A stretch of 64,000 nucleotides of DNA from an uncultured Bacteroidales bacterium (GTDB lineage Bacteria > Bacteroidota > Bacteroidia > Bacteroidales > UBA4417), in contig CAJAXK010000053.1 in NCBI GenBank assembly GCA_903946925.1, positions 5,558-69,557 on the forward strand, written 5' to 3'. The position numbers were made by a program, and so were the translations under genes. How positions within the stretch are numbered: the first letter of the stretch is position 1; each line of letters opens with the position of its first letter. Positions 16,200 through 44,052 of this stretch are shown one piece after another. The notes under the pieces were generated by a model. It made no database searches and had not been told where the DNA came from. It worked only from the letters and a program-made list of their open reading frames with translations.

Positions 16200-17363
16200 C
16201 TATAATTTATCGAAATAATAAGCCTTCACTTTTTCCCTTAAATTATAATTCGACGACATAACTTCGCCATACGCCCCTGTTGATCTAATGGCTATAAGGT
16301 CGCCACGCTTGGTAATAGGAAGGTTTAAGGCTTTTCCAAAGCAATCGGAACTTTCGCAAATAGGGCCAACTACATCGTACCTCTGCAATTTGCCGTCTTT
16401 ATTGGATAGGTTTTCAATTTTATGGAAAGCTTGGTATAATGCAGGGCGGATAAGCTCGGTCATGCCTGCATCCAATATCATAAAATCGGTGTTTACACCA
16501 TTTTTTATATACAAAACTTTTGAAATCAGGCTGCCACTTTGGGCCACAACTGCACGGCCAAGCTCAAAATGCACGGTTTGCCCCGGATAAACATCCAGGA
16601 AATCGTGAAAAACCCTAAAAAAAGAGCCAAAATCAACAATTGAATGTAAATCAGGTTCGTGGTAATCAATTCCCAATCCACCGCCAACATTGAGGTTAAG
16701 GATCGGAATACGTTTTTGCTTGAACCAAAGCTGAAACTCGTTGATTTTTATACACAGCGATTTGAATGCGTTCAGGTCAGTAATCTGGGACCCGATGTGG
16801 AAATGCAGCCCAATTAGTTTGATATTTTTTAATGTTTTTAGTTTTTCAACAATAGTTTCGAGTTCCCATTGGTTAATCCCGAATTTGTTTTCTTCCAACC
16901 CGGTAGTGATATATTTATGGGTATTGGCACTTACATTGGGGTTTAACCGTAAGGCAACAGGGGCAGTTTTGCCCATTTTCCCCGCCAATTGATCGATTAC
17001 ATCCAATTCCTGTATGCTCTCACAATTAAAACTATGAATATCGTGCTTAAGCCCGGTAATTATTTCTTCATCGCTCTTGCCAACGCCTGCAAATACTATT
17101 TTACTGCCCTCGAACCCAGCTTCAACGGCTCTTGTAACTTCGTTGCCGCTTACACAATCTGCCCCAAAACCATACTCCCTGATTTTTTGTATTATCGGCA
17201 CATTGGCGTTTGCTTTGAGGGCATAGTGTACTTCGAAACCGTACTTTTCTGCTTCCTTTTTAAGTATCTGAAGCGTTAAGTCAAGCAAGCCCATGTTGTA
17301 ATAATAAAATGGGGTAGGGGTGAGGTTGAATATATTTATCTGGTTTTCAGTAAAATTTGTCAT
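16200..17363 (-). CDS. lysA: Diaminopimelate decarboxylase
   Basis: HYALKANANVPI (PLP lysine), GGGLGIDY, GPICESSD. Confidence 0.9.
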   Translation of the reverse strand: MTNFTENQINIFNLTPTPFYYYNMGLLDLTLQILKKEAEKYGFEVHYALKANANVPIIQKIREYGFGADCVSGNEVTRAVEAGFEGSKIVFAGVGKSDEEIITGLKHDIHSFNCESIQELDVIDQLAGKMGKTAPVALRLNPNVSANTHKYITTGLEENKFGINQWELETIVEKLKTLKNIKLIGLHFHIGSQITDLNAFKSLCIKINEFQLWFKQKRIPILNLNVGGGLGIDYHEPDLHSIVDFGSFFRVFHDFLDVYPGQTVHFELGRAVVAQSGSLISKVLYIKNGVNTDFMILDAGMTELIRPALYQAFHKIENLSNKDGKLQRYDVVGPICESSDCFGKALNLPITKRGDLIAIRSTGAYGEVMSSNYNLREKVKAYYFDKL

Positions 17364-17516: not shown

Positions 17517-18836
17517 TCAATCCAATTGGAACAAGCCTTTGTTTAGCGCCAGAAGTGTGTCTTTTTTAATTTTTGTTTCAACAAGTACAGAGATATTATT
17601 TTCGCTCCCACCATACGAAATCATGCGCACCGGGATACTTCGCAATGCGTCAAAAATAGCCCCGGCATAACCCGGTTTTTCCGCTGGAAACAATCCAACA
17701 ATACTTACAATACTAAGATTAGTTTCAACATTTACAATTCCAAATTCGTTGAGTTCGACAAGGATATTTTCCAAATCATCGGTATTGTCAACGGTTAACG
17801 AAACAGCAACTTCCGATGTGGCAATCATATCAATTGGCTTTTTGTACCGTTCAAACACTTCAAAAACAGCCCGCAGGAAACCATAAGCCAGCAACATCCT
17901 CCCTGACTTAATGTTGATGGTGGTAATCCCGTCTTTGGCGGCAACAGCCCTGAAACCTTCAGTTTGGTTTTCGGAAGAGATTAATGTCCCCAAGGCCTCT
18001 GGTTGCATTGTGTTGAGTAGCCTAACAGGGATGTTCTGGCTTTTTGCGGGTAAAATGCAAGTCGGGTGCAGAATTTTTGCCCCAAAATAGGCCAACTCTG
18101 CTGCTTCGTCAAATGTAAGTTTTGCAATTGGGAAAGTTTTGTTTACAAACCTTGGATCGTTGTTGTGCATGCCATCAATATCGGTCCAAATCTGGATTTC
18201 CTCAGCTCCAATAGCCGCACCAATAATTGTTGCGGTATAATCGCTTCCACCACGTTTTAGGTTGTCAATTTCGCCAAAATCATTCCGGCTTATGTAACCT
18301 TGAGTTATAAACAGCGATTCTGATGGATGTTTGGCTAATTCGAGCCTTAAGTTTTCGGAAATAAATCCCATGTCCGGTTCCGAATTTTCGTTCATCCGCA
18401 TAAAATTAAGGGCTGGCAGCAGTACCGATTGAACCTTCTTTTCTTCGAGTAGGTATTGGAACAGTGCAGTCGAAATCAATTCGCCTTGGGCAAGTATGGC
18501 CCTTTCTTCGTTAATGGTAAACAAATCGCGGGTAAATGAACGCACATAATCGAAATGTATCGAAAGTAGTTCTTTTGCTTTTGAAACGGAACTTTCGGTA
18601 GTGTATAATTCCTGGATTACATTGGAGTAATTTTTCTCAAGCAAATCAATGAGTATCGCGGCTTTGTCGTTTTCTTTTTGATACAATGCCTGACTGATTT
18701 CAACCAGCGAATTGGTTGTCCCACTCATGGCAGAAAGAACTACAATTTTAGCTTCCGCATTGTCAATCAAACCAATAAGGGAGTGCATGCGTTGCGGCGA
18801 ACCAACCGATGTGCCGCCAAATTTCATTATTATCAT
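17517..18836 (-). CDS. lysC: Aspartate kinase
   Basis: MKFGGTSVG start, kinase core, and C-terminal ACT-like region. Adjacent to lysA. Confidence 0.9.
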   Translation of the reverse strand: MIIMKFGGTSVGSPQRMHSLIGLIDNAEAKIVVLSAMSGTTNSLVEISQALYQKENDKAAILIDLLEKNYSNVIQELYTTESSVSKAKELLSIHFDYVRSFTRDLFTINEERAILAQGELISTALFQYLLEEKKVQSVLLPALNFMRMNENSEPDMGFISENLRLELAKHPSESLFITQGYISRNDFGEIDNLKRGGSDYTATIIGAAIGAEEIQIWTDIDGMHNNDPRFVNKTFPIAKLTFDEAAELAYFGAKILHPTCILPAKSQNIPVRLLNTMQPEALGTLISSENQTEGFRAVAAKDGITTINIKSGRMLLAYGFLRAVFEVFERYKKPIDMIATSEVAVSLTVDNTDDLENILVELNEFGIVNVETNLSIVSIVGLFPAEKPGYAGAIFDALRSIPVRMISYGGSENNISVLVETKIKKDTLLALNKGLFQLD

Positions 18837-28776: not shown

Positions 28777-30540
28777 ATGAAAAAAAATCTACTCTTGGCA
28801 ATTTCGTTTGCCATAGCAAGTTCAAGCCTTTTGGCAGGTGGGATAATGACAAACACCAACCAAAGTGCTGCTTATGCACGCATGCTTGCCCGAAATGCAA
28901 CCTTAGGGATTGATGCCGTGTATTACAACCCGGCGGGACTTACAAAATTGGGAAATGGCTTTCACCTTTCGTTAAACAACCAATCAATCTTTCAAACCAA
29001 AGACGTTATTAACGATTATAAATACCTGAATGGAACACCCACAACCTATACAGGTATTGTTGAAGCTCCTGTCTTTCCTGGAGTATATGCAGCGTATAAA
29101 ATGGACAAGCTTGCTTTTTCCTTTGGTTTTAACCCAGTAGGAGGTGGCGGTGGTGCCCAATATGATACAGGTTTGCCTTCATTCGAAATGCCTATTTCGG
29201 ATTTAGTGCCTATGTTGGGGCCTAAAAGTGCAACTGATCCTGGTTTTGGAGTAACTAAATATTCAGCGGGTATTAATTTCGAGGGTACATCCGTTTACTT
29301 TGGTTATCAGTTTGGCGTTTCATACGAAATTAACCCTTCCATTTCCTTATTCGCTGGTTTACGTGCAGTTAGTGCAGAGAACACGTACAAAGGTACAATC
29401 ACTGATATAATGGTGAACCCTACTTATACTGCTGCACCAGCAATCCCTGGATTTACTTCCCCAACATTTAACGGTAGTTTTGTTAGGGCCGATAAATTTG
29501 CAACTGATATGAAAGACTACTATACAGCAGGTTCTACCTATTATGCAGGTGTTTCTACCTACTACGCAGGTGTAGCTACACAATACAATACCGCGGCTGC
29601 TGGTGCTGGAAGCCTTACTGCTGCTGGTTTAGGGGCATATACTTTTGCTCAGGCACAGGCTGCCGGTGCTATTACCGCTACTCAGCAGGCCCAGTTTGAG
29701 GGTGCTTTAACAGCTGCTGGCCAACCTGTTTCCACGCCAATAGCACAAGCCCAGGTTGTTTACACAACTACTGCAGGTCAGGCATCGGCTGGTTCAACAC
29801 AAGCCGCAGCCGGTTCGGCCCAAATGGCTGGCGGTGCAACACAAATGGGCGTACTGGCTGGTAAAACAGGCAATGCCGAAGTAGATGTGGTACAAAAAGG
29901 TACCGGTTATACACCCATATTCGGTGCCAACCTTACCATTGCCGAAAAGTTGACCTTAGCCATCAAGTATGAAATGATAACTAAAATTGAACTGAAAAAC
30001 GAAACCAAAATTGACGAAACCGGCAAATTCCCCAATGGGGCAACGTCAAGGGCCGATATGCCCGCAATGCTCGCAATTGGTGCATCCTATCCAGTTACCA
30101 AAAAGTTGAATGCTTCGTTAGGTTTTAATTATTACTTCGACAAAACTGCAGATTATGGAAAAACCGATAATTTAGGCAACCATATTGACAACAGTGATTT
30201 GATTGACAAAAACTATTTTGAGCTGGCTGTGGGCTTAGAATATAATTTTACCGAAAAATTCTTGTTGAGTACCGGATTCCTTACATCCCAAACGGGTGTT
30301 TCGAAAGAATACCAAACCGATTTGAGCTATAGCCTTTCATCAAATACAGCGGCATTTGGTGGGCAATATAAAATTTCGCCTGCAATTGGCCTTAACCTTG
30401 GAGGTGTATATACAATGTATGCCGAAGACGAAAAGCCTTTTACACATCAATTAGGTACAAGTTTTATCCCTGTTACCGAAAACTATTCCAAATCAACCTG
30501 GTTGGTTGCAGTTGGGTTAGATATTAAAATAGGGAAATAA
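28777..30540 (+). CDS. FadL/TodX-like outer-membrane beta-barrel protein with a low-complexity A/G/T/Q-rich insertion
   Basis: Signal peptide; N-terminal GGIMTNTNQSAAYARMLARNATLGIDAVYYNPAGL resembles the OMPP1/FadL hatch region; beta-strand-like C-terminal half. The family call is tentative. Confidence 0.5.
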   Translation: MKKNLLLAISFAIASSSLLAGGIMTNTNQSAAYARMLARNATLGIDAVYYNPAGLTKLGNGFHLSLNNQSIFQTKDVINDYKYLNGTPTTYTGIVEAPVFPGVYAAYKMDKLAFSFGFNPVGGGGGAQYDTGLPSFEMPISDLVPMLGPKSATDPGFGVTKYSAGINFEGTSVYFGYQFGVSYEINPSISLFAGLRAVSAENTYKGTITDIMVNPTYTAAPAIPGFTSPTFNGSFVRADKFATDMKDYYTAGSTYYAGVSTYYAGVATQYNTAAAGAGSLTAAGLGAYTFAQAQAAGAITATQQAQFEGALTAAGQPVSTPIAQAQVVYTTTAGQASAGSTQAAAGSAQMAGGATQMGVLAGKTGNAEVDVVQKGTGYTPIFGANLTIAEKLTLAIKYEMITKIELKNETKIDETGKFPNGATSRADMPAMLAIGASYPVTKKLNASLGFNYYFDKTADYGKTDNLGNHIDNSDLIDKNYFELAVGLEYNFTEKFLLSTGFLTSQTGVSKEYQTDLSYSLSSNTAAFGGQYKISPAIGLNLGGVYTMYAEDEKPFTHQLGTSFIPVTENYSKSTWLVAVGLDIKIGK

Positions 30541-30770: not shown

Positions 30771-30772
30771 GC

Positions 30773-30805
30773 AAAGGCCCCCTTTTAGGGGCTTTTGCCT
30801 TTTTA
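30773..30805 (+). terminator. Terminator-like hairpin upstream of the NRPS promoter
   Basis: AAAGGCCCC CTTTTA GGGGCTTTT followed by GCCTTTTTATT. Confidence 0.5.
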
Positions 30806-30976: not shown

Positions 30977-32520
30977 ATGGATTTATCCCTCATAGATATT
31001 TTAGACGAAGCCACCTCGAAACATGCTGATAAGCTGGCAGTTAAAACAGAAGTAGATTCTTACTCCTATCTTGAATTTCAAAATAGTACGGTAAATTTTT
31101 CAAGGCAATTGCTCATTTCGGGCTGTGCAGATGCGGGATTGATCGGGGTTTATTTTGAAAGGTCTTTCGAGATGGTTTTAGGTATTTTTGGCATCCTTCG
31201 AACAGGTTGTGCCTACGTTCCGGCAGACCCTAACAACCCGCAAAAAAGAACTTCCACATTATATAAAAACCTCAATATCAAATATGTTGTAACAAGCCAG
31301 CAATTTAAGCCTATAATCGAGGAAATGGGTTTTGTGGCTATTGTTCCAGAAATAGATTTGAAAACCCCACGACCAGGAATTTGCAATCCTGTTCCACCCA
31401 ATTCAACTGCCTATATACTTTTTACCAGTGGCTCCACCGGCGAACCCAAAGGCGTTGAAGTGCCTCATAATTCTGTTGTTAATCTTGTAATTTACATCCA
31501 GGACAGGTATCCGCTGTTGGAAGGTGAAAAAGTACTCCTGAAATCGCCCTATACTTTCGATGGTTCGGTTTGGGAGTTGTTTGGCTGGATATTGATGGGC
31601 GGTACACTTTATATTTGCAATCCCGGCGATGAGAAAAACCCTCAAAACTTAGCCAAGTTAATAGCCAAGGAACAGATAAACTTCCTGTTTTTTGTGCCTT
31701 CGATGTTGTCGGTTTTTATTGATTATATTGATTTACAAAGGGATAAAACCAACTTGTCTTCGCTAAAATGGGTTTCTGTTGGGGGCGAAGTGCTTACGCC
31801 AACCCTAGTAAAACATTTTTACAAAGCTTTACGAAACCATCAAGTAAGGTTGATAAATGTATATGGCCCAACCGAAACCACAGTTTATGCCACTACTTAT
31901 TTATGCGACCCGAATAAGGATTACATTAAATTACCTATTGGCAAAGTTGTTAACGGCGATTATATTTATATTTTGGATGCCGATCTTAAACAGCTTGCCC
32001 CTGGACAGGAAGGCGAAATATGTATTGGTGGCGCTGGTGTGGCAAAAGGTTATTTCAACTCCGGGCTTTATACAAAAGAAAAATTTATTGACGATCCGAT
32101 TACAGGTGTAGGTAAGATATACAGGACTGGCGACATTGGCATGCAATTGCCCAATGGGATGTACGATTTTATTGGAAGAAAGGATTTTCAGGTTAAACTG
32201 CGTGGTCAGCGCATCGAGTTGGGCGAGGTTGAAAATGCCTTGCAACAAATAGATGGGGTTCTGGAATGTGTTGCTGTTTATGCCAAGGACAGGAATAACG
32301 ATGGCAGCCTGATTGCATTTATCAGGCCACAAACTGAATCATTTACACAAATATCTGTATTTCAATTAGCTGATACTGTATATGCCGATTCGCTAAGAAC
32401 GAAATTGATGGAGTTTATTCCATCCTACATGATCCCATCAGAGATAATACTTTGTGAAAGATTCCCTTTGAATCAAAATGGCAAAATTGACCGTTCGGCA
32501 TTGCCACCCATTTCCACTTT
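30977..32520 (+). other. NRPS adenylation domain A1
   Basis: A3 FTSGSTGEPKG (about 31421), A4 FDGSVWE, A5 NVYGPTETT, A7 YRTGD, A8 GRKDFQVKLRGQRIELGE, A10 NGKIDR (about 32474). Confidence 0.9.
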
Positions 32521-35500
32521 GCTCGATTCGGGATTGGAGAATGGTTTTCAGCCCCAAAATGAGGATGGGCAAACTATATATTCCATTTGGAAGCGGATAC
32601 TTGCACGGGATGTAATTGCATCCGACGAGGACTTTTTTCAGGCTGGCGGCCATTCTTTAAAAGCAATTCAGGTTATAACCGAAATAATCAAAACCTTTGA
32701 TCTCGAAATCCCATTATCCATTTTTTACAATAAACTCACCCTTCCTTCATTATGTGCATATATTGCTGAAAATGCCAATTCAGCCCATGCAATGCTTGAT
32801 TATAAGTTTAAAACCAGCCCGAAAAAAAACAATTATAGCCTTACCCCGGTTCAGTCCGAAATATGGGTAATGAACAGTTTTGACCCAACAGGCATTACCC
32901 ATAACATACAAATTGAATTTACTGTTGAAGGAAATGTAGGAATTGACCAGTTTTTGGATGCCATTAAACAAACCATTCGTTCGGAAGATTCCTTTCGCTC
33001 GGTTTTTCCGTTTAACGGCGAAGAACCTGTTCAAATAGTGCTTGGATCGGTTGATTTTCAGATTCCTTTTAGCGATTTGTCTTCGCTTTCAATACTCCAA
33101 AAGGATGAGACGTATGCCGAGATTGTTCACTTAAACGGCCATGTTTTGTTCGATTTTAACAAACTTCCGTTGTTTTCCCTGCATTTGGTGAAATGGGAAA
33201 CCCATAGTTTCCGGTTGTTGATGGCTATTCATCATATCATTTTCGACGGTTGGTCGCTATCCCTTTTTATGCAAAGGGTAATGCAAAGGTATAACGGGAA
33301 CGAACCCCCAAAAAGCCTGTATAGCAATGGCGACTATTCGCATTGGCTGAAAGAGTATACCCTCGAATCGGGTTATGGTAAAGAATTCGGCTATTGGGAG
33401 AAAGCATTGCAGCATATTCCCGCCAGGCTTTCATTGCCCACAAAGCCAGGAGCCGATTTTTCTAAAGCCGGGATGTATGGGAAAAGGCATTGGTGGTGGC
33501 TTCCCGAAAAATTGGCATCCCAAATTGATGCCTTTGCTACTTCACAAAATACAACACCTTTTGTTGTTTTGATTAGCGCGTATCATATTGTGCTGGCAAA
33601 ACATGCCAACCAGCGCGAAATTATTGTCGGCACACCTTTTGCTAACAGGCAACACCCCATGACAGGCGAACTGATTGGGTATTTTACAAATATGGTGAGC
33701 ATATCCTCCATAATTGGCGAAAATGATACGTTTGCCGATTTGATTGCCCGCTGCAACGAAGCTTCGATTGGTTCATTTTCTAATGCCTTGCTCCCTTTTG
33801 GTGAATTGGTGAAAAGATTGGGTCTCAAATTCCAACCAGGGGTTTATCCCATTTATCAAGCAATGTTCGTGTTGCAAAACTGGCCGCACCAGCCTTCCGA
33901 AAATGAAGGATTCCGCTTTACGCAAAAGGAAATTGGGAACGAAACCTGTAAAATGGATTTGCTTCTGAATATTGAAAAGTGCGATAACCGCTATGGCTGC
34001 TGGATCGAATTTGATACCCAACTATTTACCGACCAATTAATTGCTGCCCTATCCAATGATTTTAATCACATCCTGGAGCGCATCGTTTCCCGTCCCGATA
34101 GTAATGTGCTGTTGGAAATAGGGACCATGGGACTTCCTTATAAGGATGCTATGGCTGAAACCTGCATGGTTATTGGTGAAGGATCCCTGGCCATTTATTG
34201 TGCCGAACAGCTTTTCCAACAAGGGTTTTCCATCCAAAAAATTATTTCAATAGACGAAAAATTAATACCGTTTGCCCAAAAACACAATATAAAAGTTGAA
34301 ACTGAATTAAGCAATAGTATTGATATTGAGCAGGTTGATTATATTTTTAGCATCAACAACAGCTTAATCCTCACTCCAGAAATACTCGGTAAGGTTACGA
34401 AACTTGCAATCAATTACCACGATTCGCCGCTTCCCAAATATGCAGGGATGTACGCAACAAATCAGGCGATTTTAAACGGTGAAACCTGTCATGGCGTTTC
34501 GTGGCATAGCATTACGGCACAAATTGATGCAGGCCACCTACTGGCTTCCGCCAAAGTTGATGTATTTGAAACCGATACTGCTTATTCGCTGAACATGAGG
34601 TGCTACGAAGCTGCAATAAACAGCTTTGGGTTGCTGTTAAATGATATTAAAAAAGGGAATCCCAATCCCCAACCCCAGGACTTGGGGCAGCGCAGTTATT
34701 TCCAGCTATGGCATCGGCCAGCGGGATTTGGAATAATTGATTGGCAAAAACCGGTGGGCGAAATTGGTAGGCTTTTAAGGGCTTGTGATTTTGGGCCGCA
34801 TACCGAAAATGCTTTTTTGCTGCCCTATATTTATGTCAACAATAAGTTTTACAACCTTTTAAAAGCTACCTGTTTAGCCAGAAAAAACACCAAACCTGGC
34901 ATCGTAAGTGTTATAAATAATACAATAGGTGTTGGATGTAAGGATGGAATTCTTCTTGTTGAAAAATTATCGGATCAGTCAGGAAACGAAATTTCACCTT
35001 CTGAAATCCTATTTGAAGGGCAGTTTTTGACCCAGCTCCAACCTGAAATTATAGGGCAAATATATGCGCATTATAAAAAGTGGGCAAAATATGAACCCTT
35101 TTGGGTAAAGCAATTCCTACAATCGGAATATTTCAAAATCCCTTTTCTTGAAAGTGGTTACAAGTTGATTAATGAATGGTATAATATAGAAGATATAGAT
35201 TATCAGAGGATTAGTGCGCAAAAGCTGGGCCGTGCCGAAACCCTCGAAGCTTTGGTGGCCTATTATTTTCTTAGGCTGGCACGCAAAAACCGTGGAACGT
35301 TTGCCTATTCCGATACTTGCGAAAGCGGTGAAATGCCTTTTGGCCACTGGAAACCCCTCAATATTGAAATTGATGGGGATGAAACTTTAGGGGAAACCAT
35401 TTCAAAAATATGCTCGCTGATCGCCGAAATTAAATTGAATGGGAACTATTGTTCAAATATACTGGACCGCTTCCCTTTACTCTCTGATTTAAAGGGAAAA

Positions 35501-38380
35501 ATGCCGTTTGTTGTTTTCGCGAAAAGCGGTGCAACAAATAATTTTGAAGCGGAAGGATTATGCTTTGTGCAGGTTAACGAACAGTATATCAGTATTAAAG
35601 GAATAAATCCATCTATTGCCAATGCTCTAAGATCATTCATTGATATTGCTGGGCAATATTTAGGCGTTCCGAACAAACTTACACCTTTAATGGCTGGCAC
35701 TTTTGAAAAACGCATTCACTTGGCACAGAATGTAACTGTATGTGAGCCTACCATTGTTGGCGATGTGATGGGCGCGTTTAAATTGGTTTCTGCCAATTTC
35801 CCTGAAAGCAACGCCATATTCGATTCGGGAAAGTATTATACCTATTCCCAATTTAACCAAGAGGTTGGGCAGCTTGCACTTATGTTGCAGAAATCGGGTG
35901 TTGGCCACAATTCGGTGGTTGCTATAAGTATGTACAGGAGCTATAATTATTTTCTTTCGGTGATGGCCGTTTTGCATTGTGGTGCAGCTTTTTTGCCCCT
36001 CGATCCAACTTTGCCACTCGAAAGGAAAAGGTTTATGATTATTGATTCCGATGCCAAACTATTGGTTTATAATGGGAATACCGATTTTTCTGATTCTGGG
36101 ATTTTGAATTTGGATTTGGCTTCCCTCGTGTTAACCGAAGCTGCTGAATCCGTACCAACCCTCTGTGATGAAACCACCCTGGCATACATAATGTACACAA
36201 GCGGCTCCACCGGATTGCCGAAAGGCGTAAAAATTAGCAGAAAATCCCTTGCCTCTTTTATAGGTGGTGCGCTGGGTTTGTATAAAATTACTGAAACCGA
36301 CAGCATTTTACAATTTGCCAACCTGGCTTTCGATGCTTCTATCGAAGAAATGTTTTGTGCGTTTTGCTCAGGTGCCGCACTTTACCTCCGAAACGATGAA
36401 ATGTTGGATCCGGAAAAACTATTGTCGTTTACAACAAAACACGGAATTACAGTCTGGGATTTGCCCACAGCCTTTTGGCGGCAATTGCTTGCATCTGATG
36501 TATATAGGCAGCAAAACCAACTCACAAAGCTAAAACTTGTGATTATTGGAGGCGAGGCTGTCACCCTATCCGATTACACTTTATGGAAAAGCTTTGGCAA
36601 TGCACAGCACGCCTTGTTCAACACGTATGGCCCAACCGAGACCACTGTTGTTGCCCTTGCATACAAAATAAACCAGCTTCCCGCCCAAGCGGATGATATA
36701 CCTATCGGAAGGGTATTCCCCGGAAATACGGTCGCTATTATTGATCAATTTGGTTTTCAGTTGCCTGAGGGCGTTATTGGGGAATTAATTATTTCCGGCA
36801 AAAATGTTGCGGATGGTTATGTTATTGCACAGGAAAATCAAAAATTGCTTTTTGGGGTTGACGAAACTACAAAACTCCCGTCTTACAAAACAGGCGATCT
36901 AGTTGCCTGCGATCAATCAGGCTACATTCATTATATGGGAAGGAGCGATGAACAGCTTAAAGTCAGGGGTTTTAGGGTCGAACCCAAAGAAATAGAGATT
37001 TCGATTCGCAACATTGCAGGTGTTGAGGATGCAGTTGTAATTGGGGTTGCTGATCCTTCAGGGAATATAATATTGGCAGCTTTCTATACAGGTAAAAGCA
37101 TCAAAAATAATCCTGATTTTATAAAGAAACACCTTCAGGAAATATTGCCAGCCTTCATGGTACCGGCTATCATAATCCATATTGATAAAATCCCACTTAC
37201 CCGAAACGGGAAATCGGATCTTGCAAAATTGAACCAGCTTGGTATCCAGCATCATTCGGATTGGAAGCCTTCGTTTATGCCTGCAGTCGGAAAAACCGAA
37301 ATTGGTTTGCAAGCGATTTGGGCCAAAATATTCAAAAGGGAAAACATTGGTGTTGAAGATAATTTTTTTGACATAGGCGGACATTCGCTTACTGCGGTGC
37401 AACTTATGGCAGGCATAAAACGTGAATTTGGTTCCGAACTTCCCCTTTCGGCTTTGATTGCTAAGCCTACCATCCGCTCTATTGCCGCCCTTATCGAAAG
37501 TAAAAACACCGATTACCTTTGGGATGTTATTGTGCCCATAAGGCGTGAAGGAAGTTTGCCCCCACTTTTTTTAATCCATGGGGCTGGCTTGAATATTTTG
37601 CTTTACCAATCATTGATAAAACATTTGAAATCCGATAGGCCGATTTATGCACTCCAGGCCAAGGGTTTGGATGGAAAAAAAACAATAAGCACAAGTATTG
37701 GCGAAATGGCCGAGCATTATATTATCGAAATAAAGAAGGTTCAGCCAAGTGGCCCATATTATTTTCTGGGTTTTTCGTTAGGTGGGTTTATAGGTTACGA
37801 AATGGCCCGAAAACTAATCAAACAAAACGAAAAAGTTAATTTTATTGGGGTTATTGATTCGGTTGCTTCGCTTGCCAAAGAGGAAATTCCTATATTGAAA
37901 AAAATGGTTTCAAGGCTTTTCAGGGCCGTGGCGGTTCCCATCTACACAGTGTGGCTATTTATGAGGGAGCCTTGGAACGGGAAAAGGGTTTTTTTAACGA
38001 CCAAATCAAAGAATTTATCACTTACATTCCGATATTATTCCAAAAAAGCCGGTGTTTTGGAGGAAAAGGAAAAGACTTCGGATACACCGGAAAACGCCCT
38101 TCCTGTTTATCTCAACGAGAATTTGAAGATCAAGCTCGTAGATGCATTGAGGCAATATACTATCAAGCCTTCGGAAGTGCAGTTAGACTTGTTTAAAGCC
38201 GGGAAAGCAACTTTTTATATTGCTGATCGCAAGTCGTACGGCTGGTCGAAATATGCAAGCAAAGGCGTTGTAGCACACACGATACCTGGCGAACATTCGA
38301 GCATGTTTGCGCCTCCAAACGATAGTTTCTTTGCTCAAATCCTCGAAAAACGGCTTTCTGTTGCCGACCAATCAGAATGA
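30977..38380 (+). CDS. Non-ribosomal peptide synthetase, two modules: A-T-C-[formyltransferase-like]-[unassigned]-A-T-TE
   Basis: Core motifs read in order: FTSGSTGEPKG, NVYGPTETT, YRTGD, GRKDFQVKLRGQRIELGE, NGKIDR; FFQAGGHSL; HHIIFDGWS; INYHDSPLPKYAG..IDAGHLL; YTSGSTGLPKG, NTYGPTETT, YKTGD, GRSDEQLKVRGFRVEP, NGKSD; FFDIGGHSL; LFLIHGAG..GFSLGG. Confidence 0.95.
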   Translation: MDLSLIDILDEATSKHADKLAVKTEVDSYSYLEFQNSTVNFSRQLLISGCADAGLIGVYFERSFEMVLGIFGILRTGCAYVPADPNNPQKRTSTLYKNLNIKYVVTSQQFKPIIEEMGFVAIVPEIDLKTPRPGICNPVPPNSTAYILFTSGSTGEPKGVEVPHNSVVNLVIYIQDRYPLLEGEKVLLKSPYTFDGSVWELFGWILMGGTLYICNPGDEKNPQNLAKLIAKEQINFLFFVPSMLSVFIDYIDLQRDKTNLSSLKWVSVGGEVLTPTLVKHFYKALRNHQVRLINVYGPTETTVYATTYLCDPNKDYIKLPIGKVVNGDYIYILDADLKQLAPGQEGEICIGGAGVAKGYFNSGLYTKEKFIDDPITGVGKIYRTGDIGMQLPNGMYDFIGRKDFQVKLRGQRIELGEVENALQQIDGVLECVAVYAKDRNNDGSLIAFIRPQTESFTQISVFQLADTVYADSLRTKLMEFIPSYMIPSEIILCERFPLNQNGKIDRSALPPISTLLDSGLENGFQPQNEDGQTIYSIWKRILARDVIASDEDFFQAGGHSLKAIQVITEIIKTFDLEIPLSIFYNKLTLPSLCAYIAENANSAHAMLDYKFKTSPKKNNYSLTPVQSEIWVMNSFDPTGITHNIQIEFTVEGNVGIDQFLDAIKQTIRSEDSFRSVFPFNGEEPVQIVLGSVDFQIPFSDLSSLSILQKDETYAEIVHLNGHVLFDFNKLPLFSLHLVKWETHSFRLLMAIHHIIFDGWSLSLFMQRVMQRYNGNEPPKSLYSNGDYSHWLKEYTLESGYGKEFGYWEKALQHIPARLSLPTKPGADFSKAGMYGKRHWWWLPEKLASQIDAFATSQNTTPFVVLISAYHIVLAKHANQREIIVGTPFANRQHPMTGELIGYFTNMVSISSIIGENDTFADLIARCNEASIGSFSNALLPFGELVKRLGLKFQPGVYPIYQAMFVLQNWPHQPSENEGFRFTQKEIGNETCKMDLLLNIEKCDNRYGCWIEFDTQLFTDQLIAALSNDFNHILERIVSRPDSNVLLEIGTMGLPYKDAMAETCMVIGEGSLAIYCAEQLFQQGFSIQKIISIDEKLIPFAQKHNIKVETELSNSIDIEQVDYIFSINNSLILTPEILGKVTKLAINYHDSPLPKYAGMYATNQAILNGETCHGVSWHSITAQIDAGHLLASAKVDVFETDTAYSLNMRCYEAAINSFGLLLNDIKKGNPNPQPQDLGQRSYFQLWHRPAGFGIIDWQKPVGEIGRLLRACDFGPHTENAFLLPYIYVNNKFYNLLKATCLARKNTKPGIVSVINNTIGVGCKDGILLVEKLSDQSGNEISPSEILFEGQFLTQLQPEIIGQIYAHYKKWAKYEPFWVKQFLQSEYFKIPFLESGYKLINEWYNIEDIDYQRISAQKLGRAETLEALVAYYFLRLARKNRGTFAYSDTCESGEMPFGHWKPLNIEIDGDETLGETISKICSLIAEIKLNGNYCSNILDRFPLLSDLKGKMPFVVFAKSGATNNFEAEGLCFVQVNEQYISIKGINPSIANALRSFIDIAGQYLGVPNKLTPLMAGTFEKRIHLAQNVTVCEPTIVGDVMGAFKLVSANFPESNAIFDSGKYYTYSQFNQEVGQLALMLQKSGVGHNSVVAISMYRSYNYFLSVMAVLHCGAAFLPLDPTLPLERKRFMIIDSDAKLLVYNGNTDFSDSGILNLDLASLVLTEAAESVPTLCDETTLAYIMYTSGSTGLPKGVKISRKSLASFIGGALGLYKITETDSILQFANLAFDASIEEMFCAFCSGAALYLRNDEMLDPEKLLSFTTKHGITVWDLPTAFWRQLLASDVYRQQNQLTKLKLVIIGGEAVTLSDYTLWKSFGNAQHALFNTYGPTETTVVALAYKINQLPAQADDIPIGRVFPGNTVAIIDQFGFQLPEGVIGELIISGKNVADGYVIAQENQKLLFGVDETTKLPSYKTGDLVACDQSGYIHYMGRSDEQLKVRGFRVEPKEIEISIRNIAGVEDAVVIGVADPSGNIILAAFYTGKSIKNNPDFIKKHLQEILPAFMVPAIIIHIDKIPLTRNGKSDLAKLNQLGIQHHSDWKPSFMPAVGKTEIGLQAIWAKIFKRENIGVEDNFFDIGGHSLTAVQLMAGIKREFGSELPLSALIAKPTIRSIAALIESKNTDYLWDVIVPIRREGSLPPLFLIHGAGLNILLYQSLIKHLKSDRPIYALQAKGLDGKKTISTSIGEMAEHYIIEIKKVQPSGPYYFLGFSLGGFIGYEMARKLIKQNEKVNFIGVIDSVASLAKEEIPILKKMVSRLFRAVAVPIYTVWLFMREPWNGKRVFLTTKSKNLSLTFRYYSKKAGVLEEKEKTSDTPENALPVYLNENLKIKLVDALRQYTIKPSEVQLDLFKAGKATFYIADRKSYGWSKYASKGVVAHTIPGEHSSMFAPPNDSFFAQILEKRLSVADQSE
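32560..32770 (+). other. NRPS thiolation (PCP) domain T1
   Basis: DFFQAGGHSLKAIQV, with the Ser codon near 32653. Confidence 0.85.
32830..34110 (+). other. NRPS condensation domain
   Basis: LTPVQSEIW start; active-site HHIIFDGWS at about 33229-33255. Confidence 0.85.
34150..34980 (+). other. Methionyl-tRNA-formyltransferase-like domain (N- and C-subdomains) embedded in the NRPS
   Basis: CMVIGEGSLAIYCAEQL (Rossmann-like start), INYHDSPLPKYAG (compare FMT NxHxSLLPxxRG), HGVSWHSITAQIDAGHLL (compare HxxxxxxDxGxI), then an FMT-C-like stretch IDWQKPVGEIGRLLRACDF. Confidence 0.7.
34990..35750 (+). other. Unassigned region of about 250 aa between the formyltransferase-like domain and A2
   Basis: No A, C, E, T, MT, KR or TE core motif could be recognised in YAHYKKWAKYEPFW...LMAGTFEKRI. 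Confidence 0.4.
35760..37250 (+). other. NRPS adenylation domain A2
   Basis: A3 YTSGSTGLPKG (about 36193), A4 FDASIEE, A5 NTYGPTETT, A7 YKTGD, A8 GRSDEQLKVRGFRVEP, A10 NGKSD (about 37204). Confidence 0.9.
37290..37500 (+). other. NRPS thiolation domain T2
   Basis: NFFDIGGHSLTAVQL (about 37363-37400). Confidence 0.85.
37540..38380 (+). other. NRPS thioesterase (TE) domain
   Basis: LFLIHGAGLN, the GFSLGG nucleophile elbow, and C-terminal IPGEHSSMF (His). Confidence 0.8.
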
Positions 38381-38381
38381 A

Positions 38382-39059
38382 ATGGTAGAAGTTCGAACTT
38401 GGGTTAAAATCCCGGATCTTAGCGAAATGCCAAAAGTCCTGCCTTGTTTGGTTTATTGCAAACCTCAAGGGGATATTGGGCAAGCAAAAAGTTGGATTTT
38501 ATCGTTGCCGGAATTGGCCAAGGCCGACAGCTTATTGCCTCAATCGAGAAGGATTTATTGTGCGGCGCATGTTGTTTTGCGGTTAGTTTTAGCTCATTTT
38601 ACTGGGATTGCGCCCGAAATATTAGCAATCGCCAATTTGGTTGAAAGCAAGCCGTTTTTACCAAACCATACTCTTAAATTCAATTTAAGCCATACCGAAA
38701 ATGCTTTCTTAATTGCAGTTTCCAATCAAGAAATTGGCGTTGATATTGAGGAAATACACAATGATTTGGATTTTGAAGGCATAATGGATTTTGCTTTTAG
38801 CGAAAGCGATAAAATGTTGTGTGATAAGCACGATTTGCCAAACGCGTTCACCCAAATGTGGACGTTGAAAGAGGCTTACACGAAAGCGATTGGGACTGGT
38901 TTATCCGAAAACCTTTCTGAAATCAATATTTCAGGGCCAAAAAGTGTATTGAATCAGGATGGTTATTGTTCCAGCACTTTTATTTGCCCCGGAAACGAAA
39001 TTGGAAGTGTGGTTTGTGGCCAGGATTTAACGGGGTTGCTGTTTTTTGAATTGCTTTGA
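38382..39059 (+). CDS. Sfp-type 4'-phosphopantetheinyl transferase
   Basis: The ATG at 38382 lies 1 nt after the NRPS TGA (38378-38380); the track ORF from 38307 overlaps the NRPS. Motifs FNLSHTEN, GVDIEE, WTLKEAYTKAIGTG. Confidence 0.85.
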   Translation: MVEVRTWVKIPDLSEMPKVLPCLVYCKPQGDIGQAKSWILSLPELAKADSLLPQSRRIYCAAHVVLRLVLAHFTGIAPEILAIANLVESKPFLPNHTLKFNLSHTENAFLIAVSNQEIGVDIEEIHNDLDFEGIMDFAFSESDKMLCDKHDLPNAFTQMWTLKEAYTKAIGTGLSENLSEINISGPKSVLNQDGYCSSTFICPGNEIGSVVCGQDLTGLLFFELL

Positions 39060-39089: not shown

Positions 39090-39126
39090 CAAACGGTTTC
39101 AACTGCTTTGGTTGAAACCGTTTTAA
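39090..39126. terminator. Bidirectional terminator between the convergent PPTase gene and the T9SS protease gene
   Basis: AAACGGTTTCAAC (39091-39103) / GTTGAAACCGTTT (39111-39123), perfect 13-bp stem, flanked by A- and T-rich tracts. Confidence 0.65.
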
Positions 39127-39180: not shown

Positions 39181-42100
39181 TCAATGTTTTATAATTTTGT
39201 ACAACAACATTGAGTTTCCCAATTTAACATTGAGCAAGTAAATTCCAGAAGGGTAGAGGCCCATATTTATCGAAGTAATTTCACCTTTCCCTAACACATC
39301 CTCTAATTCGTAAATGGCTTTCCCTTTTGAATTATAGAGTGAGTATTTATTGATTATTTGCCCTTTGGATTTCAAATTGAGGGTTTCGCTTACTGGGTTT
39401 GGCCACACTTCAATCAATTCATTGGAGGGTAATTCATCCAAACCGATAAATGGTGAAGTGTTGATGGTTAGGGCTTCGGAGAAAACCCCTGAACCACAGG
39501 CATTGATACCAGCAACTGATAATTCGCATATACCGTTAAATTGGGTATCCCAAATTATTGAGCAGGTGTTTCCCTGATGCGAAACGGAACCGGCTACTGC
39601 TGGGCTTAAAACCCAACTATATTCGGTGGCATTGGCTGATAGAGTGGTTGTGTAAATGGTTTCTGGGTTTATCAGCGGATTTACCATGGTCGAACCTATT
39701 GGTTGTGAAGGTGTTGCTGCAATAGAGTCAACGCTTACAGTTGTTGAAGCTTGCAGGGAATTTGATCCATCGTTTACAAGCACTGTATAAATTGTTGTCG
39801 TTGCCGGGTTAACCAATGGGTTTAAAATTGTTGACGAAAACCCAACAGGAACCGATGACCACGAATAGGTATAGTTGCCAGTTCCTCCTCCTGCAAATGC
39901 CGAAAGCTGGGAAAAACCACCAACACAAATTCTTTCAGGTTCCGAACTAACACTTACACTTAGTGGGCTGCCGGAAACATTCACAAAAATATTGTCAGAA
40001 GCTGTGCAAAGAGTTGCCGGATCGGTAATATTCAGTGTAAATTCCACAGAACTGTCCAATACTATGGTTGATGGGTTTAAAATATTTGATGAAGTAAGTT
40101 TATCAGCTGGTGTCCAACTGATTGTGAAGTTTCCTGTTCCCCCGGTGGCTTGTCCATTTAATATGGTTGAAGTACCGAAAGGAATGGATTGGTCAGTTCC
40201 TGCATTTGAGTAAACTGATGGATGAATAGTGAGTTGCAACGTGTCGGTTGCATCACCACATAAACCTGTGCCAAAACCAGTGAGTGCTAAAAATACTTGC
40301 CCATTTGTGATATCTGTTGCGCCAGGAGTATATGTGGGCGACAGTATTGAATTGCTGTTAAATACACCATCGCCTGCTGTGCTCCATAGTAAACCCTGGC
40401 TCGATGCACTGGCCCCTGTCACAGTAAACGAACTACCCGAACAAATAGAAGCATCTAATCCCGCCATTGCTGCAGGAGCTTGATAAACGGTTAAAAACAT
40501 TTGATCTGTTACCGATTGTGCAGTTGGGCTTCCAACATGTATTGTTAGTTCGACAGAACCCGTGTTTTGGTCGTTAATTCCTGGAGTATAGGTAGGGTTT
40601 GGGATATTTGTGTTGCTAAAGTACCCATCACCCACCGATGTCCAGAAAAGGTTGCCTGCATTTATTACTGAGGCCTGCAACTGGTATGCCGTTGGCACAC
40701 AAACATAATCATCAGCCCCAGCATTTGCCACCAATAATAAATCGCTGTAAGGTGGCCAAACAATATAATCCACCCAAGCTTTGTCGCTTCCGGCAACAAC
40801 ATTTACATCTTTGCTGTACCGCCAGGTAAATGTATGTGTGCCTTCCGTTACAGTATATGTAACCTTCGACCAGGCCACTTCGCCCGACCATTTTCCTTGT
40901 TCAACGCCATCAATTAAAAAAGTGAGGTAATCGTAATTGTTTTCGGAGGATACTTTTCGATAAAAACTGATTTCGGATGCAGAAAGCACATTCAATGTGA
41001 TATACATCGAGCTTAACTGGTTATCGAGGATTGTTCCCGATGCTGAGCAGTAATTTCCTTGTGAAGGCAAGGTATTTGTTGTTTCCCAATTGGCATTTCC
41101 TCCAAGTTGCCATGCAAAGCGTGTAAAATTGTTGGTTTCGAAGTCTTCGGCAATTTGCCCGACCATAAAATATACGCTGTCAGAAAGTGTGTAATTGTGA
41201 TCTGCCGATAGTAATAATCCAGCTAAACCAACATGCCCGAGAGGACAGGAAGCCGAAACAGAAATTTGAAAATCAATACTTTGAGTGCCGTTCTTGTTGA
41301 TGATAGGGATTGAAGCATTTCCCTGTATGATGCTGATCATGGGGTCGATAGCACTTAATATTGTATTGATATTTGTTGCAGCCGAACCTCCACCATTTTT
41401 TATGGTTATGTGTAAAACCCCGTTTTCGCCAGGCATTAATATATTGTTGTTACCATCCAGAATGTTGATGGCAGAAACCGAAAGTTCTGGTGAATTGGCT
41501 GTAAGTGGTATGATACGTGTAAATATATCTTCGGTAGCAACTGCCTGATTGGTAGTAATAATAGTGTGGTTGTTCGGAACCTGATCCGAAACGTGAAATG
41601 ATATGGCATTTGTAACGGTTATGGTTTGTCCGGGGTTCAGCAACCCAAAAAGCTGTGTGCTGTCAATAAGTGAAATATAGGGATCGGTAACAAGAAAGCT
41701 TAAATTTACGTTATTTAGTGGCGTACTGCCAATGTTTGTAAGCTTAGCCGTAAGCATGGCGGTTTCGCCATATTCGATTATGCTGTCGCTGCCCGAAGTA
41801 ACGGTGTATTCGATGGTTATGCCTTTGGTCGAAAAATTCAGCGTTTTGGTGGTATATAGATTATTGTTGTCCTCGGCATAAAACTTTATCGGCACATTGC
41901 TGCAAGTAGTTGTGGGCGTGCCCGAAAACACCCCATCGTCGCTTAAACCCATTTCATACGGGAATGTTGGAGTTGTAAACCGGAACATTGAATTGGCAGT
42001 TGGCTGAGCGATCGAATCGGAAATTGAGCCAAACCTGTAATTTACCCCGTCACCATTCGAAATACCCATATTCCATGTAACCCAATCGTTTGAAACTATA

Positions 42101-44052
42101 CTTCCATAATAAAATTCGAGTTTCCCATCGGGGAATATTTTTACCGCAAAATTCAAATCGGTAGTTGGCCCACTTCCATACATTCCTGATTTCCATCGGA
42201 ATATGGCATAATTCTGATTCCCCTCGTACCAAATCCCATCTCCTTCGGAAGGGAAAAAAGTAAGTGGTTTCGACATATAAGGCGAAATATTGCGCGTATT
42301 TTTAAAATATGTTTTTTCGTAAATGAGAAAAGTCCAAGGGGTTAAATCGGGCTGAAACATCAGGTAACCATCAACATTTGCATAGAGTTTCGAGTATTTT
42401 TTGCCATAAAATGGGAACTCGAATGGTAAGTTTACTTCAGCAAACCCACTTGAAGTATTGGTAATGGTAAGTTGTTGTGCCGTTACTGTTGGGAATGGGG
42501 TTGGGACAGGCGTTTCGGAATAGTCGCAAAATAATTTCCAACGGTATGCTGGAGTTCCTCCGGTGGCGTTCATTTGCTGGCTGAAAGGTTCATATATTTT
42601 AGCTTCCGGAATTGAGGTATTGGTAATCGAAGGCCGATTGTGGATCGGTGTATAAATTATCGAAAGCTGCGTTAGCCCATTTTCGATAAGGGGCACATTG
42701 CTGCTGGGGCAAGAAATTATAGTTGTTACGCCCGAATAATCCACCAGATCAAACGATATAATTTGCCCGGTAGCGGCATTTGAAGGATCGTTTTCCTGTA
42801 CAGTGAAGAAAAACTTTGCTGCTTGTCCTGGCTCGGTTTTACTAAGCAATGGGGTTGCATCAATCCCAAATTCAATGGTTTTATCGGCTTCCGTGTTCCC
42901 TCCAAGCATAAATTTATCCCCTCCCTGTAAATCGAAAATGGGAAGGTTAAGCAAATCGTCTGGCTCGGTAGCAAGTGTGTTTTGGGCAACCCCAGCCATG
43001 ATTTTTATTTTATTCCGAGAAGTATGTTTCAAAGTGATTTTGTATGTGAGTTTTGGGCTTACATCCTGTTTTACCTTTACAATATGTGCCGAATGGTTCC
43101 AAATCCCACCACTTCCCGAATTGTCGGCAAACGTTTTGTACATCACAAACGAAAAGCCTTGATCGCCCCAGTTGTTGATGCCGCCGTATGTATTTGCAAG
43201 TTTAAAACCACCTATTTCCCAGTCTTTTACGTTTACCATTCCATCGCCGTTAATATCAATGGTATTGGTATAAATCCCATCGCCATTATAATCGTATCGA
43301 ATAGAATCGTTATATCCTACTAAAGTAACTGCATGATTTGTGCTGCCGCCCCAGGTTACAATTACCCATTTTCCCGCTTCGGGGGTTCCTGCTGCAAGTT
43401 GTGCATCAGGCGTTTTATATTGGATATAAATATTTGCAAGCCCACCAAAACTCGAAGTATTTGAATGGTTGAAAATCCAGTTTTTCAAAGTGGTTAAACC
43501 CGACACATCGCCGGCATTGATAGCGTAAACATCGCTTATTCGGTTGTGCATGGCATTGTAATAGGTGTTGTACCCGGTCATCCAACGCGACGCGCCACCT
43601 GTAGAAAGCCCGCCATAATCGGCAACGGTTGGGTTTCCACAACGTTTTACAATTTCCCACGATTCGAAATAACTTACCCCGGCATCGCTTCCACCATTTA
43701 TAAAATCGTAAGCGAAATGAGTAGCATACTGGTTTTGTGCAACATTTGCCGGTAGGTTTCGTGCTACGGCCATTTCGTAAGTAAAATTGAGGCCAATGCT
43801 TGCTGCCTGCCCACATTCGAGCCCCGATTGGTTGAACAAGGGCCGAAAATAAGGCTGTGTGGTGTTGTCAACACTTATGGGCAAGGTAACTGCCTGATCG
43901 CTAATATTTACTTTGTATTCGGGAAAAGTTGAGAGTTTTTCCAGATCCGTTTGTGAGAGAGGGTTTAGCCCATTCAGGATCTGGCTTTTTTGTGCTGAAA
44001 CAAAAAAGCTAACCGCAATTAAAAAGGGGATCAGCAGGTAGTTTTTATTCAT
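39181..44052 (-). CDS. Giant T9SS-secreted multidomain protein with N-terminal papain-like (C1-type) cysteine peptidase domain
   Basis: Signal peptide; NQSGLECGQAAS (Cys), STNHAVTLVGYND (His), LANTYGGINNWGDQGFSFVMY (Asn/Trp region); Ca-binding-like insert DYNGDGIYTNTIDINGDGMVNVKD; a jelly-roll-like block EISFYRKVSSENNYDYLTFLIDG; repeated Cys-containing Ig-like modules (GGTGNFTISW, GGTGNYTYSW); C-terminal VWPNPVSETLNL..GIYLLNV T9SS CTD. Confidence 0.7.
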   Translation of the reverse strand: MNKNYLLIPFLIAVSFFVSAQKSQILNGLNPLSQTDLEKLSTFPEYKVNISDQAVTLPISVDNTTQPYFRPLFNQSGLECGQAASIGLNFTYEMAVARNLPANVAQNQYATHFAYDFINGGSDAGVSYFESWEIVKRCGNPTVADYGGLSTGGASRWMTGYNTYYNAMHNRISDVYAINAGDVSGLTTLKNWIFNHSNTSSFGGLANIYIQYKTPDAQLAAGTPEAGKWVIVTWGGSTNHAVTLVGYNDSIRYDYNGDGIYTNTIDINGDGMVNVKDWEIGGFKLANTYGGINNWGDQGFSFVMYKTFADNSGSGGIWNHSAHIVKVKQDVSPKLTYKITLKHTSRNKIKIMAGVAQNTLATEPDDLLNLPIFDLQGGDKFMLGGNTEADKTIEFGIDATPLLSKTEPGQAAKFFFTVQENDPSNAATGQIISFDLVDYSGVTTIISCPSSNVPLIENGLTQLSIIYTPIHNRPSITNTSIPEAKIYEPFSQQMNATGGTPAYRWKLFCDYSETPVPTPFPTVTAQQLTITNTSSGFAEVNLPFEFPFYGKKYSKLYANVDGYLMFQPDLTPWTFLIYEKTYFKNTRNISPYMSKPLTFFPSEGDGIWYEGNQNYAIFRWKSGMYGSGPTTDLNFAVKIFPDGKLEFYYGSIVSNDWVTWNMGISNGDGVNYRFGSISDSIAQPTANSMFRFTTPTFPYEMGLSDDGVFSGTPTTTCSNVPIKFYAEDNNNLYTTKTLNFSTKGITIEYTVTSGSDSIIEYGETAMLTAKLTNIGSTPLNNVNLSFLVTDPYISLIDSTQLFGLLNPGQTITVTNAISFHVSDQVPNNHTIITTNQAVATEDIFTRIIPLTANSPELSVSAINILDGNNNILMPGENGVLHITIKNGGGSAATNINTILSAIDPMISIIQGNASIPIINKNGTQSIDFQISVSASCPLGHVGLAGLLLSADHNYTLSDSVYFMVGQIAEDFETNNFTRFAWQLGGNANWETTNTLPSQGNYCSASGTILDNQLSSMYITLNVLSASEISFYRKVSSENNYDYLTFLIDGVEQGKWSGEVAWSKVTYTVTEGTHTFTWRYSKDVNVVAGSDKAWVDYIVWPPYSDLLLVANAGADDYVCVPTAYQLQASVINAGNLFWTSVGDGYFSNTNIPNPTYTPGINDQNTGSVELTIHVGSPTAQSVTDQMFLTVYQAPAAMAGLDASICSGSSFTVTGASASSQGLLWSTAGDGVFNSNSILSPTYTPGATDITNGQVFLALTGFGTGLCGDATDTLQLTIHPSVYSNAGTDQSIPFGTSTILNGQATGGTGNFTISWTPADKLTSSNILNPSTIVLDSSVEFTLNITDPATLCTASDNIFVNVSGSPLSVSVSSEPERICVGGFSQLSAFAGGGTGNYTYSWSSVPVGFSSTILNPLVNPATTTIYTVLVNDGSNSLQASTTVSVDSIAATPSQPIGSTMVNPLINPETIYTTTLSANATEYSWVLSPAVAGSVSHQGNTCSIIWDTQFNGICELSVAGINACGSGVFSEALTINTSPFIGLDELPSNELIEVWPNPVSETLNLKSKGQIINKYSLYNSKGKAIYELEDVLGKGEITSINMGLYPSGIYLLNVKLGNSMLLYKIIKH

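Follow-up and report, generated by a model that had tools for sequence, protein, structure and literature searches.

What does a formyltransferase (F) domain do in the second module of a nonribosomal peptide synthetase (NRPS), behind a complete condensation (C) domain? Two reviews describe the F domains that NRPSs carry in cis as scarce, always placed in the initiation module and capping the N-terminal residue only, since formylation blocks the amine. The question is raised by a stretch of 64,000 nucleotides from an uncultured Bacteroidales bacterium (contig CAJAXK010000053.1), here called the window, in which the list of open reading frames (ORFs), their translations and Pfam reveal a single ORF for an NRPS of 2467 aa that holds a formyltransferase domain. 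The protein reads A1-T1-C-F-C*-A2-T2-TE, with adenylation (A), carrier (T) and thioesterase (TE) domains; C* stands for a condensation remnant, and the coordinates of all parts are collected in Table 1. On balance we think it probable, from the evidence set out below, that F formylates one amine of a lysine bound to T2 and that C uses the other, which would give a small formylated dipeptide.

The formyltransferase domain and the remnant behind it

Residues 1059–1345 form a complete two-subdomain formyltransferase of the FMT/ArnA superfamily. Pfam recognizes Formyl_trans_N (PF00551) at aa 1104–1212 (69.0 bits against a cut-off of 26.1, E 5.7e-19) and Formyl_trans_C (PF02911) at aa 1252–1345 (36.7 bits against a cut-off of 21.1, E 5e-9). 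The best matches among PDB sequences, found with phmmer, are the formyltransferase domain of ArnA (1.8e-19), WbkC (6e-15), GART (1.6e-12), FMT (1e-11) and LgrA (2e-4). An AlphaFold2 model was made of aa 1050–1610, the same residues that served as query for the family search described below, and its F part has a predicted local distance difference test score (pLDDT) above 90. Foldseek matches this model to the ArnA formyltransferase (2BLN), Coxiella FMT (3TQQ) and E. coli FMT (1FMT) over ∼300–310 columns with target-normalised TM-scores of ∼0.75–0.82, and the match takes in both the Rossmann-like and the oligonucleotide/oligosaccharide-binding (OB)-like subdomain of F. A Rossmann-like start followed by an OB segment is also what the first-pass annotation had read from the letters of the sequence, and both Pfam and the model place the two subdomains in this order. 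The five motif strings it had pointed out are all present and follow each other as it had described: CMVIGEGSLAIYCAEQL at aa 1063–1079 (nt 34163–34213), INYHDSPLPKYAG at aa 1145–1157 (nt 34409–34447), HGVSWHSITAQIDAGHLL at aa 1172–1189 (nt 34490–34543), IDWQKPVGEIGRLLRACDF at aa 1254–1272 and GILLVEKL at aa 1324–1331. The start had to be corrected, as the frame begins at 34151 and not at 34150.

The catalytic Asn-His-Asp set had appeared to be kept, and it is. Asn1146, His1148 and Asp1184 fall on N102, H104 and D140 of E. coli ArnA in the phmmer alignment, with zero gaps from the NxH motif to the Asp (ArnA numbering was counted from the alignment start, where ArnA residue 76 faces query residue 70), and the structural match to ArnA and FMT likewise put none of the three residues out of register. 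Within the family, examined in an alignment of the 163 best matches drawn from 50%-identity clusters, the Asn is found in 161 members, the His in all 163 and the Asp in 161. The 13 orthologues of the same architecture, each aligned pairwise to the window protein, all have NHD. The motif AINYHD[AS]PLP[RK]YAG is near-invariant across the 163 members and has the form AINYHDSPLPKYAG in the window protein; a second signature, WH...DxG[D]I, appears there as WHSITAQIDAGHL. Two departures from the classical motif had been noted at the outset, RG to AG and SLLP to SPLP. Both are real, and with the Ala of AG in 155 and the Pro of SPLP in 120 of the 163 aligned members they are best taken as signatures of the lineage, not as decay. 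E. coli GART is likewise without Arg at the RG position.

F had been described as sitting just upstream of A2, which did not hold: 255 residues (aa 1346–1600), our C*, separate the two. This stretch of the window protein alone gave zero Pfam matches. Its counterparts in three relatives (P0002, P0007 and P0045) match the Pfam Condensation profile at positions ∼191–456, and a profile built from 148 C* stretches aligns to a full C-domain profile with an hhalign probability of 95% (E 2.8e-8, C positions 195–331 of 440). The AlphaFold model of C* alone (pLDDT 77) has only NRPS C domains among the best 50 PDB matches listed (EntF, Txo1, RzmA, CDA-C1 and SrfA-C), with E-values down to 4.5e-8 and query-normalised TM-scores of ∼0.6. 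C* is without the HHxxxDG motif and, with 23% identity among the orthologues, varies more than any other part of the NRPS. Judged by profile and predicted fold, it is what remains of a condensation domain after loss of the N-lobe and, with it, of HHxxxDG: a non-catalytic C-terminal lobe. It probably acts as a scaffold, forming the usual platform against A2.

Is F itself also a relic? It might be a silent scaffold left over from an ancestral initiation module, holding C, C* and A2 together in an NRPS that makes a plain dipeptide. The adjoining C* is clearly a non-catalytic relic, and NRPSs often keep dead domains such as the inactive epimerization (E) domain of LgrA, both of which fit such a fate. 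The mean identities across the 13 orthologues do not: they are 47% for A1, 41% for T1, 40% for C, 45% for the N-terminal (F_N) and 32% for the C-terminal (F_C) subdomain of F, 23% for C*, 43% for A2, 39% for T2 and 39% for TE. In conservation the catalytic subdomain of F thus matches the A and C domains and reaches twice the level of C*, and the triad is kept in 13 of 13 orthologues at only 40–50% identity, which argues for activity of the predicted F domain. The near-invariance of the AINYHD[AS]PLP[RK]YAG motif across the 163 members also stands against a silent F, and we regard this alternative as improbable. An active enzyme, which the first-pass annotation had thought possible, is the better reading of triad, identity levels and AG signature, so far as sequence and model can tell.

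The F-C* family and the lysine-type code behind its embedded members

Searching 1.84 billion cluster representatives exhaustively with HMMER (query window 34124–35806) gave 1214 proteins at E ≤ 1e-30, all of them representatives of 50%-identity clusters and with matches that span query residues ∼13–455 or more. The F-C* part is homologous to that of the N-terminal F-C*-A-T modules at E 1e-50 to 1e-108. A word-indexed protein search returned 15 matches only; the family is visible with the exhaustive search. In its usual layout F-C*-A-T stands at the N-terminus and is followed by TE, by a reductase (R) domain or by further modules. Plasmid matches to F-C* were seen in Legionella, rhizobia and Brevibacillus. 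By sequence, F-C* is a large NRPS lineage distinct from the F domain of LgrA.

LgrA (F-A-T-C-A-T-E; PDB 5ES5–5ES9 and 6MFW–6MG0) has an N-terminal F domain of 193 residues that joins A directly and uses formyl-tetrahydrofolate (formyl-THF) on the amine of the carrier-bound aminoacyl group; its E domain is inactive. Both proteins have a formyltransferase fold in cis upstream of A, where it takes roughly the position of a C domain, and their N/H/D-type cores align. However, the window F aligns only to LgrA residues ∼36–160 (E 2e-4), is ∼290 aa long with an OB subdomain, is followed by C* and, within the second module, comes after a complete C domain. In position, size, direct junction with A and sequence closeness it is consequently not of the LgrA type. 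ArnA and FMT are the best matches in both sequence and structure, with the triad in register, yet they are free-standing or otherwise fused, act on UDP-Ara4N or Met-tRNA with no carrier link, and have SLLPxxRG where the family of the window protein has [SA]PLP[KR]YAG. The N-terminal F-C*-A-T modules are homologous over the whole of F-C* and have the common motif. They differ in that their A codes vary, whereas the window F is preceded by A-T-C and followed by a lysine-type code. The F domains of ApdA (anabaenopeptilide), of kolossin and of the mollusc Fmt-A-T-R protein are probable candidates for the F-C* lineage. A non-catalytic partial C domain, also called C*, is known ahead of the first A domain of the ACV (aminoadipyl-cysteinyl-valine) synthetase. 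Compared by description, it resembles the window C* as a motif-less remnant kept upstream of A, but it has no formyltransferase partner.

In 15 of the 150 best matches F lies internally, at about residue 1030–1080 of proteins of 2350–2830 aa (3619 aa in one case). For several of these embedded relatives the order A-T-C-F-C*-A-T-TE of the window protein was confirmed by Pfam or gene calls. When the GTDB representative genomes were scanned with F-C* peptides, one relative was found (33% identity), in a metagenome-assembled genome (MAG) labelled Parabacteroides, and it also has the embedded layout. The 3619 aa protein (P0096) reads A-T-C-F-C*-A(Lys)-T-C-A(Gly)-T-TE, so that F stands in a true middle module. 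Other layouts include a separate C-F-C*-A-T protein (P0161) and TE-F-C*-A in 1172 aa (P0045). Assembly chimerism and pseudogene status of the window NRPS could be ruled out by these 15 proteins with F at an equal internal position and by the identical ORF, with the same neighbours, in at least 10 metagenome contigs that were assembled independently of each other.

The code of A2, read from a HMMER alignment to GrsA (1AMU), is DAEDIGTVV, with the Lys from the A10 motif NGKSD. This is a lysine-type code and L-Lys is the predicted substrate. The best NCBIfam match of A2-T2 is MxcG, which we take to be a lysine module. Among characterized enzymes, ScoA (DTEDVGTVVK) and MmaA (Rv0101; DIEDVGSVVK) both show a strong preference for L-Lys in ATP-PPi exchange, whereas L-Orn is not activated, and the one C domain that each of them has acylates the carrier-bound Lys at both amines. 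These synthetases of isonitrile lipopeptides thus have a near-equal A code and are a precedent for chemistry on both lysine amines, although there one C domain acylates both, release is reductive and no F domain is present. Literature searches with the exact A2 code, five variants of it and 'DAEDIG' gave nothing relevant; a shorter fragment led to the lysine codes of ScoA and MmaA.

What sets the embedded proteins apart is how constant this code is. It follows F as D[AGTI]E[DN][IV]G[TS]V[VI] in 16 of 16 embedded-F proteins and in the C-F-C*-A-T protein P0161. The A1 codes of the embedded proteins vary (DGWFSGVVY, DSWFSGVVY, DVYYLGG[IV][CY] and DSCFQGRVD), the first of them presumably resembling Ile-type codes, and 75 relatives with an N-terminal F have ∼66 different A codes, among them some that resemble those for Ser, Thr, Gly, Val, Cys and Asn. 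With a C domain ahead of F, the next A domain was lysine-type in 17 of the 18 cases checked. Single-module F-C*-A-T-TE proteins with a lysine code (P0021, P0022 and P0029) are among the closest relatives of the window F-C*, and the simplest reading of this suggests that F served a lysine module before A1-T1-C was fused to it. As far as our literature search showed, the embedded position and the near-constant pairing with lysine are undescribed: for internal or elongation-module F domains, formyl-lysine NRPS products and formyltransferase NRPSs of Bacteroidetes we found nothing described.

Several observations weigh against a lysine-based role of F. The A2 code equals that of ScoA at 8 of 10 positions, and the solved structure with the closest pocket segment is A1 of ApnA, which we take to be bispecific for Arg and Tyr, so Arg is possible for A2. 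One of the 18 C-preceded F modules, the 2000 aa protein P0071 (C-F-C*-A-T), has a Gly-type code. Its HHxxxDG motif and F triad are intact, and a luciferase-like monooxygenase is inserted in its A domain. F positions that separate Lys-coded from other modules show weak, phylogenetically confounded tendencies only, for example YAG-M-Y versus YAG-V-H. The lysine code of the embedded proteins could also partly reflect common descent; a neighbor-joining tree separates at least two lineages among them, but it is a crude one (BLOSUM distances, midpoint root) and gives a hint only.

Two genes of the window resemble lysine biosynthesis genes, one for a pyridoxal phosphate (PLP)-dependent decarboxylase of the diaminopimelate/ornithine type (16200–17363, − strand) and one for an aspartate-kinase-like protein with an ACT domain (17517–18836, − strand). 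They lie 12–15 kb upstream of the NRPS gene with housekeeping genes in between, and the proximity may be coincidence.

Proposed route and competing explanations

With A1-T1-C fused ahead of F-C*, as it also is in a set of orthologues of ∼2470 aa, F belongs to the second, terminating module. A2 would load L-lysine onto T2, and F, dependent on N10-formyl-tetrahydrofolate, would formylate this lysine at one of its two amines. The intact C domain would then link the amine left free to the A1 residue bound to T1, and TE would release a small formylated X-Lys dipeptide. That F could act on the residue loaded by A2 had been proposed in the first-pass annotation, and the lysine-type code, which would provide a second amine, lends the proposal support. 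Formylation at N-alpha would make an N-epsilon isopeptide bond necessary, and formylation at N-epsilon would allow a normal peptide bond. Since the relatives formylate many different residues at the alpha-amine, N-alpha and hence the N-epsilon isopeptide are favoured. A-T-C could have been fused in front of F because lysine offers a second amine. The full version of this route, a novel logic of in-cis formylation within an elongation or termination module by way of a diamino acid, with N-alpha kept as the formylated position, an N-epsilon isopeptide bond and N-formylated lysine dipeptides as products of Bacteroidota (Bacteroidales and the Parabacteroides-labelled MAG), is a more demanding claim, and we hold it to be doubtful as a whole.

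An active F might instead reach upstream and cap the alpha-amine of the first residue while this is held on T1. The product would then be N-formyl-X-Lys, with the lysine side chain free or cyclised by TE. Every in-cis F domain characterized so far formylates the N-terminal residue according to the reviews, and the triad and conservation data fit such a role equally well. The Gly-coded module of P0071 would also be explained, since its own residue has no second amine. On the other hand, F serves the carrier of its own module both in LgrA and in the relatives with an N-terminal F, in the single-module F-C*-A(Lys)-T-TE relatives there is nothing upstream to cap, and such a role would not explain why A2 keeps its lysine code in 17 of the 18 cases with a preceding C domain although the A1 codes differ. 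We consider capping of the first residue unlikely, though it deserves some weight, and prefer formylation of the T2-bound lysine.

The first-pass annotation had also drawn an analogy to formyl-hydroxyornithine siderophores. Here F would formylate the side-chain amine of an N-hydroxylated Orn or Lys and so create an iron-binding formyl-hydroxamate. Such chemistry is established in pyoverdine, ornibactin and malleobactin, where the formyltransferases are stand-alone proteins, and the substrate predicted for A2 is a basic diamino acid. PvdF is alike in formylating, with formyl-THF, a side-chain N of a basic residue in NRPS products, but it is a separate protein that acts on N-hydroxy-ornithine and needs an N-hydroxylase, none of which applies to the window. 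CchA and Rft are further stand-alone hydroxamate formyltransferases, and formyl-hydroxylysine occurs in nocobactin- and formobactin-type siderophores. No lysine/ornithine N-monooxygenase (K_oxygenase) was found among the 31 window ORFs scanned, in agreement with the earlier remark that no N-hydroxylase gene is nearby, and none in the related loci L001, L006 and L007. The operon consists solely of the NRPS gene and a gene for a 4′-phosphopantetheinyl transferase (PPTase), without uptake genes; the A2 code is Lys-type and not Orn-type; and one hydroxamate per dipeptide would make a poor chelator. The only TonB receptor of the window is 20 kb off and lies behind a thiamine pyrophosphate (TPP) riboswitch. 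With no hydroxylase among the ORFs scanned and no uptake genes in the operon we rejected the siderophore reading, which we rate as very improbable.

That TPP riboswitch (61544–61635, − strand; 56.4 bits, above the gathering score) is directly upstream of the TonB-dependent receptor gene (59040–61520, − strand). The receptor probably takes up thiamine and has no relation to the NRPS.

Operon, neighbourhood and significance

The operon has two genes, for the NRPS and the PPTase, and is bracketed by terminator-like hairpins (Table 1). The PPTase gene overlaps or abuts the NRPS stop codon, depending on its start (38307 and 38382 are alternatives), and the same pairing of NRPS and PPTase is found in L001 and L006. 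A motif search found the HHxxxDG of C, the GGHS serines of both carriers and the GxSxG of TE all intact, and from these motifs the remaining NRPS domains look functional. Compared with NCBIfam, the C and TE domains gave generic matches only.

Table 1. Location of the NRPS gene, its domains and the flanking elements in the window.
Feature	Position (nt)	Strand	Basis
NRPS gene, A1-T1-C-F-C*-A2-T2-TE	30977..38380	+	ORF list, translation, Pfam
A1 adenylation domain, ∼aa 1–510, code DGWFSGVVY	30977..32506	+	Pfam AMP-binding and AMP-binding_C; code via alignment to GrsA segment
T1 carrier, approximate limits, FFQAGGHSL, Ser at aa 560	32558..32776	+	Pfam PP-binding, reported as two stretches; motif search
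Complete condensation domain, aa 617–1043, intact HHIIFDGWS at aa 752	32825..34105	+	Pfam Condensation E 9e-75, profile positions 2–440 of 456
F, Rossmann-like catalytic subdomain, aa 1059–1235	34151..34681	+	Pfam PF00551; ArnA alignment; model and Foldseek; conservation
F catalytic codons Asn1146, His1148, Asp1184	34412–34414, 34418–34420, 34526–34528	+	
F, C-terminal OB-like subdomain, aa 1252–1345	34730..35011	+	Pfam PF02911 E 5e-9; structural match to ArnA/FMT
C*, condensation C-lobe remnant and C-A linker, aa 1346–1600	35012..35776	+	Pfam of homologues, hhalign, fold search
A2 adenylation domain, aa 1605–2079 (AMP-binding aa 1605–1948 and AMP-binding_C)	35789..37213	+	Pfam
T2 carrier, aa 2111–2173, FFDIGGHSL	37307..37495	+	Pfam PP-binding; motif search
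Thioesterase (TE), aa 2196–2445, GFSLGG	37562..38311	+	Pfam Thioesterase E 4.7e-23
Sfp/HetI-type PPTase gene	38361..39059	+	Pfam ACPS; NCBIfam HetI and AusB; gene calls L002–L005
Terminator-like hairpin between 587 aa beta-barrel-like ORF and NRPS operon	30771..30798	+	11 pairs, 7 G-C, then T run
Terminator-like hairpin between PPTase and convergent type IX secretion system cargo gene	39091..39123	−	13 pairs

The surroundings of the operon are housekeeping in character (ribosomal proteins, nuo genes, valyl-tRNA synthetase), together with proteins that have sorting tails of the type IX secretion system (T9SS). One of these, a 1623 aa protein with a T9SS C-terminal sorting domain (39181–44052, − strand), is convergent to the NRPS-PPTase operon, and a T9SS-tailed esterase is found at 7462–8865. 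Such sorting domains, together with the labels of MAGs, point to Bacteroidota. The 587 aa ORF upstream of the NRPS gene (28777–30540, + strand) has faint matches to beta-barrel outer-membrane proteins (DUF2490 and the TDE1717 family) and is conserved beside the NRPS only in contigs of the same species. In the Parabacteroides-labelled MAG (L001), two aminotransferase genes flank the orthologous pair (L001 2885–4225 and 12609–13628, respectively): one of class I/II overlaps the start of the NRPS gene, and one of class IV follows the PPTase gene. Neither has a counterpart beside the window NRPS.

Among the relatives, single-module F-C*-A-T-TE genes with a lysine code directly follow GT2/GT4 glycosyltransferase genes and a beta-helix T9SS-tail gene. 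L009 adds a hexapeptide-transferase gene, and the embedded-type protein P0033 is also encoded among glycosyltransferases (loci L008 150–7336, L009 583–10779 and L007 767–17074). A link of F-C* relatives to glycan decoration is possible.

The F-C* lineage, with 1214 representatives, is very common, which is at odds with reviews that call NRPS F domains scarce, and its recurrence behind C in second and middle modules challenges their rule that F belongs to initiation only. The near-constant pairing with a lysine-type A domain would explain in simple chemical terms how a chain can go on growing despite formylation. If the proposed route is true, it would provide a tailoring rule for the prediction of NRPS products, namely formyl-lysine within the chain, and F-C*-A(Lys) might serve as a portable unit for engineering. 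The compact and self-contained two-gene operon makes the system easy to test, and the dipeptide expected from it would be heavier by 28 Da. Should the producers also be host-associated, formyl-peptide receptors could recognize the dipeptides as ligands; another possibility, suggested by the glycosyltransferase genes around the relatives, is that the dipeptides are building blocks attached to surface glycans.

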